Origin: a virus
Lineage: Duplodnaviria > Heunggongvirae > Uroviricota > Caudoviricetes
IMG/VR virus record: IMGVR_UViG_2737471821_000001
Span: 1 to 37,988 of that record
DNA length: 37,988 nucleotides
Direction: 5' to 3' (one strand)
Position 1 is the stretch's first letter; each line of letters begins with the position of its first letter. The translations under genes were made by a program, and so were the position numbers. Positions 10,157 through 11,937 of this stretch are shown piece by piece. The notes beneath the pieces were generated by a model that had not been told where the DNA came from, ran no database searches, and was given only the letters and a program-made list of their open reading frames with translations.

Positions 10157-10676
10157 TTCCATGCAAGTTTAGCTGGCAGCGCTATTAGCTCGGCGTAATA
10201 GGGCTATTCGTTAGGCTCTGTTAGTTCACCATATTTCGTCAAAACTTTTCTTTTCAACGCTACAGTTAACATTAATCATTACAAAAACTACTGTTGATGT
10301 AAGTCTTGTGAACTGTTATTTCTGAAGAGCTTACTGTGATTTATTGCGACAACGGAGTTAGCGTACTCCCAATTTGTTCATTTTTATGTTGTTTTTTTTC
10401 GCAATTTCCTGTGAGAAATCAGAAGTCTGGATGAAATAACATAAATTGTATGCGTCTGATACATATTTATACATATGTTTAAATATGAAAACTAATTAGT
10501 TTTTGATGTCATATAAATTATCGGTAATATTACTCTCGACCCGAAAGGCAGCAAGTTTCTGTTCACAGGGGTGTTACCCGCTGTCTTGCGGGTCATTGCT
10601 GGCATCCGTTTAATCATAATGAAGGGCTGTTATCAGTATCAGTGTCATTATTGTGGTTACGGAGGCCTGCTCTATA

Positions 10677-10747
10677 TGCAGGTATCGTATAGTGGTTATT
10701 ACATCAGCCTTAGGTTGGTAATGCCGGTTCGATTCCTGTTCTCCGCA
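10677..10747 (+). pseudogene. degenerate tRNA-like element related to the tRNA-Gly copy at 11461
   Basis: D-arm (ATCGTATAGTGGTTATTAC) and T-loop (GGTTCGATTCC) are conserved, but the anticodon stem cannot pair and the acceptor stem has mismatches. Confidence 0.4.
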
Positions 10748-11107
10748 ACTTCATTGTTTTTTGGACAAGTTTTTACAGCACTGGCGGTTTTCGTGAGGAA
10801 CAGATCTCTTTAATACCTTTATCGTCCCTCATTCTGTAATGGAGATCGGTTACAGACTCAGTGCTGTATTTTTTATGACACAGAAATGGCGCATTGCCCA
10901 CGAAAGGAAGCAGGATTTAGCGTGGAGTAACCAGTGATGCGCCATCTCTGTGTCGGAAAACATGAATTGGGGCGTTCCTCAGTGCGAGGGTGGTTTATAG
11001 AGTCGGTTTAGCGGGAAACCACAGTATCCACGTAAAGTGGAATACTTCGGGAGGCACCCGATGCCCCAAACCCAATAATCATTATAATATTGTGTCCTTT
11101 TATCGTT

Positions 11108-11175
11108 TTAGCCGCCGCCCCGGGCGGTTTTTTTATTCAGTTTTTATGGCTCGCCCTGGCGGGCCTTTTTCATTG
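11108..11175 (+). repeat. copy 1 of a ~65-bp terminator-containing direct repeat
   Basis: GCCGCCCCGGGCGGTTTTTTTATTCAGTTTTTATGGCTCGCCCTGGCGGGCCTTTTTCAT, two hairpin/T-run units; near-identical copy at 11780..11845. Confidence 0.6.
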
Positions 11176-11460
11176 TGTGCCGGAATTCTCAGCTGCCGGT
11201 GGGTGGTGATCAGACGGCAAAAGAGATAACTAAAGATTTTTAATTCGGTTATGATATGGCTTGTATATTTATGATACATATGTATACATATTTTCAAAAA
11301 TAAAAACCAAATATATTTTGGATATCTGAAAAACAGTTGTTAGTATTTTTGCGTCTGGAAGGTGTTTATCTTTTATGTTAGCAGGGGTGCTGTTTGCCAC
11401 CGGAAAGACCAGTGCGGGCTCTCTTGGTAATTCGTGTTATTCCGGGGGCCAGCACAGTAT

Positions 11461-11532
11461 GCGGGCATCGTATAATGGCTATTACCTTAGCCTTCCAAGC
11501 TGATGATGCGGGTTCGATTCCCGCTGCCCGCT
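11461..11532 (+). tRNA. tRNA-Gly (UCC anticodon; glyT-like)
   Basis: GCGGGCATCGTATAATGGCTATTACCTTAGCCTTCCAAGCTGATGATGCGGGTTCGATTCCCGCTGCCCGCT folds as a cloverleaf with anticodon loop CTTCCAA. The 3' end reads CAA, so CCA is not fully encoded. Confidence 0.7.
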
Positions 11533-11779
11533 CAACAGTAACTAAGGCGAGATTGTGTTAGGCACTGACATAATATATGTAGGGTGTTTTTTATGGTTCC
11601 TTGCGCCCCCTGTTCTGTAATGAGTGATATTCGTTGCGGTTCCAGTGCCATTTTTTACACCATCGGAATAATGCATTATTAGCAAATATTTTTACTACTT
11701 TAAATGCATTATTCTGATGTTGTAAACATCGACAAAAACAAAACTGTGATTGGTCATATACTAAGCCAAGCCCGGAAAT

Positions 11780-11845
11780 ACATCCTTAACCGCCGCACCT
11801 GGCGGTTTTTTTTTATTCAGTTTTTTATGGCTCGCTCCGGCGGGC
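11780..11845 (+). repeat. copy 2 of the ~65-bp terminator-containing direct repeat
   Basis: CCGCCGCACCTGGCGGTTTTTTTTTATTCAGTTTTTTATGGCTCGCTCCGGCGGGCCTTTTTCAT, compare 11108..11175. Confidence 0.6.
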
Positions 11846-11937
11846 CTTTTTCATATCCGCGCCACGCCCGGCGCACATCACATCAGATAACACCACACAA
11901 AAGGCATCTGCGGGTGCCTTTGACAGGGTGTTTTTAC

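Follow-up and report, generated by a model that had tools for sequence, protein, structure and literature searches.

Two diverged tRNA cassettes in tandem in the late region of a defective lambdoid Escherichia coli prophage

Introduction

Morons of lambdoid phages are units of promoter, gene and terminator set between conserved phage genes. In Stx phages the late region also has tRNA genes, which lie between the antiterminator gene and the holin gene in the orientation of the late operon (ileZ-argN-argO in 933W, ileZ/argO in phiP27). Here we analysed a locus of this kind in a viral record of the IMG/VR database (IMGVR_UViG_2737471821_000001, positions 1 to 37,988; this whole stretch of 37,988 nucleotides (nt) is hereafter the window), in which two units, each with an AT-rich direct-repeat element, a tRNA slot and a double-terminator repeat, follow one another at 10434-11175 (unit 1) and 11249-11855 (unit 2). 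A first-pass annotation had described them as a diverged tandem duplication in which one of two tRNA-Gly copies had decayed. We conclude that the tandem pair is diverged tRNA cargo, a moron of the ordinary kind for the late region of lambdoid prophages. Each unit (a cassette, below) is, on our reading, probably a self-contained non-coding tRNA moron in the late operon, and the tandem two old alleles joined by recombination between phages; we hold this account as a whole to be the probable one, with reservations that are set out below.

The cassettes depart from the described systems in several respects. Relative to the Stx-phage tRNA genes, they carry a glyT-like tRNA-Gly(UCC) or a tRNA-Arg(UCU) on a glyT scaffold, and they have a conserved promoter and repeat element of their own, a leader made of a hairpin and a tRNA relic, a branched terminator and a tRNA that has often decayed; in phiP27, ileZ, argO and stx2e stand at the slot that corresponds to the window's. 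Relative to lambdoid morons, the cargo is non-coding (tRNA and structured RNA) and its expression is predicted. The E. coli thrU-tyrU-glyT-thrT operon is alike in gene order to the phage tRNA arrays described below, in which Thr(UGU) has 97-100% identity with thrU, as has Gly(UCC) with glyT, but the phage array lacks tyrU and thrT and has another promoter and another 3' trailer, and outside the tRNAs we found no significant similarity between the cassette and this operon. Phage SerU-LTIIb has two diverged tRNA-Gly modules 5' of its lysis genes (tRNA-Arg and tRNA-Gly, holin1a, tRNA-Thr and Gly2, holin1), an example of recombination giving rise to tandems among phages of this group, although there, unlike in the window, the repeat unit includes a holin copy, and outside the tRNA genes the window matches SerU-LTIIb only at the type-A extension and the terminator-holin region. 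Phage HK639 was also considered as a carrier of the cassette and was rejected, as it has only tRNA relics and part of the extension in common with it.

Prophage small RNAs (sRNAs) offer a further comparison. Convergent sRNAs have been described at the moron site after the late promoter pR' (PMC4104026), and PasA and PasC lie directly 5' of holin-lysozyme genes, PasD being structurally related to STnc100 (bioRxiv 10.64898/2026.05.13.724894; PMC8550237). The likeness of AgvB, AsxR, STnc100/PasD and PasA/PasC to the cassette consists of their neighbourhood and their intrinsic-terminator ends (PMC4104026, PMC8550237, bioRxiv 10.64898/2026.05.13.724894), whereas PasA and PasC, unlike the cassette, are on the strand opposite to the late genes. 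PasA, PasC and PasD2 of E2348/69, located by the coordinates in table S6 of PMC8550237, gave no BLAST hit to the cassette or to its relatives. When 9500-12500 and six related loci were searched with Rfam, no family except tRNA reached its gathering score; the known prophage sRNAs (STnc100/PasD, AgvB, AsxR, IsrK, DicF and others) were all below it, STnc100 being the best of them, and within 9500-12500 neither GOLLD nor ROOL was matched at E <= 10. An sRNA sponge is known in the glyW-cysT-leuZ operon, namely its 3' external transcribed spacer, and like it the cassette has an RNA segment between the last tRNA and the operon terminator that tRNA processing would release; the segment of the cassette is however ~100 nt long and branched, and sequence similarity between the two was neither to be expected nor seen.

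Two homologous units in tandem

The two units were confirmed to be homologous and to share the same internal order. They align collinearly at ~73% identity, and a global alignment of 10440-11260 with 11255-11975 had 448 of 609 columns identical (73.6%); the unit alignment score was 187.5, compared with 9.4 +/- 4.7 for shuffles (maximum 27, n=100). The homology is thus continuous and not limited to short motifs, and the three landmarks (AT-rich element, tRNA and repeat) are at the positions where the first-pass annotation had placed them. Due to insertions and deletions the start-to-start spacing between the units drifts from 815 to 678 nt. We derived the anatomy of the cassette from 34 distinct variants, which comprise the two units and their relatives in IMG/VR contigs and in genomes of E. 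coli (single loci carry the prefix L below). The order common to them is direct repeats, promoter, hairpin 1 (HP1), hairpin 2 (HP2), tRNA slot, short spacer, 3' element, long hairpin, an extension in some, and two terminators. Among 10 lineages no open reading frame (ORF) was constant in its ends or its length, from which we conclude that the cassette does not code for protein.

Origin of the tandem

The cassette leader was found in 46 of 5426 complete E. coli genomes (~1%), with the cassette occurring in IMG/VR prophages as well; the listed hosts and sources of the cassette-bearing strains were mostly pigs, cattle and other animals. The tandem form was present in four of the 5426 genomes, all of them 99.9% identical to the window, and in one IMG/VR locus (L159) with both units 99.9-100% identical, while another IMG/VR locus (L224), which ends 271 nt into unit 2, has unit 1 in full. 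A comparison with related prophages, which had been proposed as a check of the duplication, did turn up single-unit forms, which taken together weigh against a local duplication. Three prophages with flanks 97-99% identical to the window (L006, L193 and L198) have unit 1 only, including its decayed tRNA copy (98.8-99.3% identical). Each equals the window minus one repeat period (678-681 nt), the crossover falling inside the terminator repeat, which is chimeric in them, with its first hairpin from copy 1 and its second from copy 2. In diverged lineages both types stand single, those of the unit-1 type in L003 and L007 at 85-87% identity and those of the unit-2 type in L005, L009-L012, L150 and L240 at 80-86% identity.

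The junction between the units also has counterparts elsewhere. The segment 11209-11275 is 83.6% identical over 67 nt to the end of a DNA methyltransferase gene plus the start of the cassette in L009-L012 and L240, and the succession of second terminator hairpin, methyltransferase relic and cassette recurs 5' of single cassettes in L004 and L005. With the decayed unit single in close relatives, both types single in diverged lineages and a methyltransferase relic in front of unit 2, the earlier scenario of duplication followed by decay found no support. The split between the unit types appears to be old, the tandem young, and the decay to have occurred before the joining; the simplest account of an old split and a young tandem would be recombination between two phages at shared terminators. 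Judging from these alignments, the tandem was most likely joined in this manner, rather than by local duplication and subsequent decay.

A decayed Thr-Gly tRNA array

The leader of each cassette consists of HP1, whose 5' end coincides with the predicted +1 in both units, and HP2. HP1 has compensatory changes at 7 of 11 pairs among 15 variants. In the consensus structure of the leader for these variants 95.8% of the cells were paired, against 24-44% when the partners were slid by 1-3 columns; 9 of 19 pairs had changed on both sides (35 cells), and the observed covariation score was reached in 0 of 500 column shuffles. Several pairs alternate between G-C and G-U, in keeping with a + strand RNA. 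The similarity of HP1 to tRNA-Lys or tRNA-Tyr was not significant (z 0.3-2.2), and we rejected it as a relic of either.

HP2 aligned to K-12 thrU with z = 6.7 in its less deleted form, that of L142, and with z = 4.0-4.8 in the shorter forms, the L142-type alignment extending over the acceptor strand, anticodon region, variable region and T arm. Supporting this, phages annotated "tRNA-Gly | tRNA-Thr", and also L238, have a tRNA-Thr whose 3' end matches the 22 nt before the tRNA-Gly of unit 2 (11439-11460). HP2 therefore reads as the remnant of a tRNA-Thr(UGU) gene. In the L238 locus, a prophage of strain ChlosBP-23-1, four tRNA genes form an intact array at 2173-2482, namely Ile(CAT), Lys(TTT), Thr(TGT) and Gly(TCC), with a promoter TTGCAA-17-TATTAT and a discriminator rich in G+C. 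The Thr and Gly genes of L238 do not differ from thrU and glyT of the host (100% identity), and the array is followed by 3' element, long hairpin, extension and terminator as in the cassette, and then by a holin of another family. A search with the 3'-element pattern found further intact Thr-Gly arrays before the 3' element in IMG/VR (L323-L326 and L334). With HP2 as a tRNA-Thr relic and intact arrays in front of a matching 3' element, the cassette is a decayed Thr-Gly tRNA array of which intact versions survive in related prophages, the 3' element being the array's own trailer and its first terminator.

The tRNA slot of unit 2 and that of unit 1 have fared differently. In unit 2 the gene at 11461-11533 is, together with 5 nt of 5' flank, 97.5% identical over 79 nt to K-12 glyT, from which it differs by a C-to-T change that gives a G-U pair in the anticodon stem and by its 3' end (GCCCGC-T-CAA, compared with GCCCGC-T-CCA in K-12 glyT). 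An encoded 3' CCA is usual for E. coli tRNA genes; as CCA is not encoded here, it would have to be added post-transcriptionally. In unit 1 the first-pass annotation had seen a decayed tRNA copy, and we agree that it is not a working canonical tRNA. ARAGORN called only the tRNAs at 10002, 10080 and 11461, leaving 10678-10747 uncalled, and none in the orthologous slots of L003, L006, L007 and L008. The Rfam score of the element for tRNA (RF00005) is marginal against the gathering score of 29, with non-standard pairs in the acceptor, D and T stems, and the L003 and L007 orthologues had no Rfam tRNA match at E <= 0.1. The anticodon loop is short, with a 2-nt deletion relative to all other variants where the Rfam model skips loop positions, two of the seven acceptor pairs (GCAGGTA with TCTCCGC) are mismatched, and at minimum energy the element folds into a rod instead of a cloverleaf. 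We consider the unit-2 tRNA probably usable and the unit-1 element a pseudo-tRNA.

The decayed copy is however not a simple duplicate of the tRNA-Gly, as had been assumed, since its slot groups with slots of the tRNA-Arg(TCT) type: the anticodon loop reads CTTCTGA in L004, CTTCTGG in L008, CTTCTAG in L007, CTTTTAG in L003 and C-T--TAG in unit 1 of the window. The T arm and 3' acceptor strand (CCTGTTCTCCGC) are shared with the Arg type and the anticodon arm is of the Arg(UCU) type, while the 5' half, including the 5' acceptor strand (GCAGGTA), is Gly-like. Alignment of the slots thus suggests descent at least partly from a tRNA-Arg(UCU)-type slot; the slot looks chimeric, which would explain the broken acceptor stem. 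Among the 34 variants 14 have a tRNA detectable by ARAGORN, either Gly(TCC) or Arg(TCT); other slots have lost an acceptor-strand base (L010 and L011), 46 nt (the L142 type) or the T arm (L239). The unit-2 tRNA is redundant with the host glyT gene, and this redundancy fits frequent neutral loss. In L004 (2752-2827) and L222 the Arg(TCT) gene has the glyT scaffold and D arm with changed anticodon arm, T arm and acceptor stem, and it appears to be a glyT-derived gene re-targeted to the rare AGA codon. We also considered the spacer after the tRNA as a thrT relic and rejected this, the similarity being not significant (z <= 1.1).

Predicted promoter and direct-repeat element

Each unit opens with a direct-repeat element in which ATACATAT occurs twice (GATACATATTTATACATAT at 10458-10476 and GATACATATGTATACATAT at 11273-11291). 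The pattern GATACANATNTATACANAT had exactly two matches in the window, even when 2 mismatches were allowed, where 0.02 would be expected by chance; a scan of genome contigs with the AT-rich repeat pattern returned chance matches only, in unrelated taxa. From the start of the element to the predicted -35 is 45 nt in both units, and the predicted -35 and -10 were present in all variants. Placing +1 at 7-8 nt past the -10 (10538 and 11353) puts the 20 bp that follow the repeats at -60 to -41 in both units. Within the unit-1 lineage the mean pairwise identity was 95% for the repeats and 96% for the promoter, compared with 76-88% for the other segments.

Promoters that depend on OmpR (ompF/ompC type) have tandem 10-bp half-sites with a conserved AC, in 20-bp sites placed in phase from ~-100 to -41. 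In the cassette, half-sites are similar to those of OmpR (GATACATATT and GTTACATATT of ompF; AAAACCAAAT and GAAACCAAAT), unit 2 has collinear matches to the K-12 ompF upstream region at equal offset (TACATATTTT and AAACCAAAT), and the ompC -35 is also TTGGAT, 5 nt past its last OmpR site. We built an OmpR position weight matrix (PWM) from six K-12 ompF/ompC sites, the sequences of which were verified in K-12 and the boundaries of which we take to be those of the literature. In-phase 40-mers at -80 to -41 scored 19.0 and 16.5 (p ~1e-4 against composition-matched shuffles; among the AT-rich 40-mers of the window they rank in the top 0.06% and 0.25%), scores to be read with the small number of sites, their assumed boundaries and the generally good scores of AT-rich DNA in mind. 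We regard the repeat element as a lead for a response-regulator-dependent promoter, a candidate suggested by these resemblances. A role as a Q-binding site is unlikely, since the element is invariant beside two Q families (DUF1133 and the "antitermination protein Q" type), and in both of these the Q gene is immediately followed by a separate promoter-terminator module. On plasmid pPE041_2 of strain PEC41 (L013, 2518-3045) the direct-repeat element and promoter precede the long hairpin, type-A extension and terminator, with HP1, HP2, tRNA slot and 3' element all missing.

3' element, long hairpins and terminators

The branched fold of the 3' element was common to 14 of 14 variants tested (z -2.4 to -6.0), and 92.7% of its cells were paired, against 30-53% with partners slid, in counts made on a plain MAFFT alignment with a hand-drawn structure. 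The type-A extension (~95 nt) that follows the long hairpin is, among cassettes, confined to those of the unit-1 type; L238, L239 and the plasmid locus L013 have it too, and phage HK639 has part of it. The extension ends in the hairpin CGGGAGGCACCCG, followed by ~45 AU-rich nt and the terminator, so that 10971-11136 has the shape of an Hfq-type sRNA; this motif also occurs between Q and holin of HK639 (L236, ~3420-3510), beside tRNA relics.

The repeat of ~65 bp had been described as two G+C-rich hairpins each with a T-run, and we found this in both copies, which are 83-89% identical over ~66 nt (11108-11173 and 11786-11854). These copies and the hairpin at 11938-11961 are predicted intrinsic terminators, a G+C-rich hairpin directly followed by a T-run; overall the scan found 13 terminator-like sites where 3.3 +/- 1.7 were expected. 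Five terminator-like hairpins after the unit-2 tRNA would, from their structure, insulate the pair from the lysis genes. A suggestion that the repeat might encode a small RNA found nothing in its favour beyond a sub-threshold STnc100 match, and the repeat reads as two intrinsic terminators.

Table 1. Features of the two cassettes and of the sequence around them (positions in the window; MFE, minimum free energy; z, z-score).
Feature	Position	Strand	Properties or evidence
Unit 1 direct-repeat element, two 10-bp repeats GATACATATT TATACATATG	10458..10477	+	-80 to -61 of predicted start
Unit 1 predicted sigma-70 promoter	10503..10530	+	-35 TTGATG, 16-nt spacer, -10 TAATAT; predicted start ~10538
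Unit 1 HP1	10538..10594	+	MFE -29.3 kcal/mol, z = -4.0
Unit 1 HP2, tRNA-Thr(UGU) relic	10598..10670	+	aligns to K-12 thrU, z = 4.0
Unit 1 degenerate tRNA-like element (pseudo-tRNA)	10678..10747	+	Rfam tRNA 31.8 bits, no ARAGORN call
Unit 1 3' element, stem CAGCACTG/CAGTGCTG around two or three hairpins, U-run	10775..10874	+	MFE -32.3 kcal/mol, z = -4.8
Unit 1 long hairpin	10875..10963	+	inverted repeat I1, 27-nt arms 10868-10894/10937-10963, 85% complementary; MFE -39.7 kcal/mol, z = -5.3
Unit 1 type-A extension GGTGGTTT..GGGAAACCAC..CGGGAGGCACCCG	10971..11065	+	alignments; missing from unit 2
Terminator repeat copy 1, hairpins 11110-11136 and 11148-11173	11110..11173	+	MFE -26.0 kcal/mol
Relic of DNA methyltransferase gene 3' end (46 nt), inter-unit junction	11209..11254	+	comparison with L009-L012, L240
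Unit 2 direct-repeat element GATACATATG TATACATATT	11273..11292	+	-80 to -61 of predicted start
Unit 2 predicted promoter	11318..11346	+	-35 TTGGAT, 17-nt spacer, -10 TAGTAT; predicted start ~11353
Unit 2 leader: HP1 11353-11409, HP2 (tRNA-Thr relic) 11412-11455	11353..11455	+	
tRNA-Gly(UCC), glyT-like	11461..11533	+	ARAGORN; Rfam 61.6 bits
Unit 2 3' element, stem GGCACTG/CAGTGCC, U-run	11560..11656	+	MFE -32.4 kcal/mol, z = -4.0
Unit 2 long hairpin	11654..11726	+	inverted repeat I2, 24-nt arms, 92% complementary; z = -7.7
Terminator repeat copy 2, hairpins 11788-11816 and 11829-11854	11788..11854	+	MFE -26.2 kcal/mol, z = -4.9
Third terminator-like hairpin, just before holin ribosome-binding site	11938..11961	+	terminator scan
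Holin ORF	11979..12350	+	Phage_holin_8, E = 1.9e-20

Late-operon setting and proposed expression

The segment 10200-12100 is 99.9% identical to E. coli prophages in VG48B2, RM11911, RM13745 and RM13752, and the window is a defective lambdoid (Rac/P27-like) E. coli prophage. In the annotation of the RM11911 prophage the early region is Rac-like (kilR, ydaT, ydaV), and the late order is DUF1367, DUF1364, DUF1133, a hypothetical membrane protein, tRNA-Ile, tRNA-Arg, a featureless 1.3 kb, tRNA-Gly and a P27-type lysis cassette; in the window the tRNA pair Ile(CAT) and Arg(TCT) is at 10002-10156 (ARAGORN). The DUF1133 gene product (8152-8694) is also above the cut-off for Phage_antitermQ, and directly 3' of its gene 8692-8810 holds a promoter-like stretch and an intrinsic terminator (8775-8800), a layout that is matched after the DUF1133 gene of L239. 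This is probably the late promoter pR' with its terminator tR', the usual layout for Q-dependent late transcription. Because a Q-like gene is followed by the pR'-tR' arrangement, the tandem units sit inside the late operon. Among the relatives compared, the cassette was always 5' of the holin gene and 3' of Q, DNA methyltransferase or tRNA-Ile/Arg genes.

As a moron, each unit has a predicted promoter of its own, which we presume to be active, and its own terminators, it occupies a known cargo slot, and unit 2 is present in some and absent from others among prophages that are 97-99% identical. The moron site would be the one between the Q-type antiterminator region and the holin gene. In the lysogen, host RNA polymerase would start ~7-8 nt past the -10, the 5'-terminal HP1 would stabilise the transcript, host tRNA-processing enzymes would excise the tRNA, and transcription would end at the 3' element or the tandem terminators, which would leave the lysis genes silent. 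In lytic growth, polymerase modified by Q at pR' (8692-8810) would pass every terminator into the holin gene. Unit 2 could still supply a glyT-like tRNA-Gly(UCC), the pseudo-tRNA of unit 1 is dead, and the shared terminator repeat would have been the crossover point at which the two cassette alleles were joined.

Several points weigh against this account. Promoter, start site and termination are all predictions made from sequence alone, and the predicted promoter fits 8 of 12 consensus positions, under the scan threshold of 9/12, due to which the scan did not list it. Because many of the variants (the IMG/VR members) were retrieved with the exact repeat-element pattern, while the E. coli members were retrieved by BLAST, the apparent conservation of the repeat element is inflated. 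The covariation of the 3' element is modest (6 pairs, 9 cells; 92.7% of cells paired, compared with 90.3% in shuffles), and that of HP2 may predate the decay and go back to a functional tRNA. Deletion from the tandem would account equally well for the single-unit relatives. Lastly, promoter, leader and 3' element outlast dead or deleted tRNAs, and a non-tRNA product would fit this at least as well as recent neutral decay.

Alternative explanations

The persistence of the flanking parts is the ground on which a regulatory non-coding RNA operon has to be considered, in which leader, 3' element, long hairpin and extension with terminator would be under selection, the tRNA would be a handle for processing by RNase P/RNase E, much as with the sponge spacer of leuZ, and OmpR or another response regulator of the host would control the operon through the repeat element. 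Promoter, leader and 3' element survive the degeneration or deletion of the tRNA, compensatory changes are seen in the stems and the folds have strong z-scores, the plasmid locus L013 has repeat element and promoter before long hairpin, extension and terminator with no tRNA, the OmpR PWM gave 19.0 and 16.5 at -80 to -41, and there are known prophage sRNAs in this neighbourhood (PMC4104026; bioRxiv 10.64898/2026.05.13.724894). The cassette has, however, no Rfam match of this kind and no similarity to PasA, PasC or PasD2, and outside the promoter its conservation is not above that of spacers; HP2 is accounted for as a tRNA relic, the 3' element also follows intact tRNA arrays, where a role as operon terminator suffices, and the PWM was made of six sites with assumed boundaries and scores AT-rich DNA well in general. 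We consider this reading unlikely, although of the alternatives it is the one we take most seriously. Its narrower form, that the cassette is a host-regulated non-coding RNA operon of P27/Rac-like prophages, possibly OmpR-controlled, in which the tRNA is only a processing signal and promoter and structures therefore outlive it in most variants, seems to us more doubtful again. Two further proposals assign RNA functions to smaller parts. The ~66-nt double-hairpin repeat might be an sRNA gene related to STnc100/PasD or to the pre-holin sRNAs of Stx prophages; there is a weak Rfam STnc100 match at 11745-11858 (19 bits, E = 0.037 in a 301-nt search), and sRNAs are known directly 5' of holin in other prophages (bioRxiv 10.64898/2026.05.13.724894), but the score is far under the gathering score of 47 and is mainly due to the terminator hairpin, the BLAST search with PasA, PasC and PasD2 found no similarity, the scan gave no promoter-like site directly 5' of either copy, and each half is a textbook hairpin with T-run, which makes this very unlikely. 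Least probable of the alternatives, in our view, is that the leader hairpins act as the put RNAs of HK022 and the cassette promoter as a Q-independent late promoter for the lysis genes. The put RNAs of HK022 are two specific stem-loops of the nascent transcript that let RNA polymerase read through terminators, and the cassette does have two conserved stem-loops directly after the promoter, 5' of three or four terminators and the holin gene; HK639, which reportedly uses put-type RNAs, is laid out in a comparable way from Q through terminators to holin and holds tRNA relics there. Both neighbouring Q families have their own promoter-terminator module, so that an extra antitermination device is unneeded, and moreover HP2 is a tRNA relic, intact arrays without HP1 and HP2 carry matching terminators, and HK639 is without leader and repeat element.

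The remaining alternative concerns the origin of the tandem. A single unit might have been duplicated in place, the copies diverging and one tRNA-Gly decaying, and it is true that the units are adjacent, co-oriented and collinear, that one tRNA is intact and the other is not, and that L006, L193 and L198 could be secondary deletions between terminator repeats. Yet the units are only 73% identical while the tandem is confined to prophages 99.9% identical to the window, both unit types are single in diverged lineages at 80-87% identity, the methyltransferase relic junction of unit 2 is also found at single cassettes elsewhere, and the decay of the Arg(TCT)-type slot is common to the diverged single-unit lineages L003, L007 and L008. 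Local duplication therefore appears improbable to us, and we favour two tRNA morons that were old alleles before recombination between phages brought them together. Read this way, the locus is a clear case of the turnover of tRNA cargo, in which host-like arrays are captured and then decay into hairpins and tandem copies are assembled through recombination at shared terminators, and it cautions that adjacent diverged repeats in prophages need not be local duplications. If control by a host response regulator, or stable RNAs from the flanks of the tRNA, were true, the cassette would be a new regulatory RNA unit of prophages.

Other features of the prophage

Compared with the RM11911 prophage, to which the window is 99.97% identical elsewhere, ~8.0 kb is missing from the window at a junction at 12319-12322. 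Absent with this segment are the last part of holin 1, the genes for holin 2, M15 endolysin and the two terminase subunits, and one that is annotated as anti-CBASS Acb1 family, and the junction joins the start of the holin gene to the 3' part of a DUF2213 gene (ORFs 11979-12350 and 12245-13363). The prophage of the window can neither lyse nor package.

An ORF of 239 amino acids (9142-9861) is situated after pR'-tR' and before the tRNA-Ile/Arg pair; it has long hydrophobic stretches, like a membrane protein, had no match to a Pfam family and is annotated as hypothetical in relatives. It is probably another moron. Finally, a hokD type I toxin gene is annotated in an identical prophage (L014, 7458-7613), where it corresponds to ~6657-6812 of the window.

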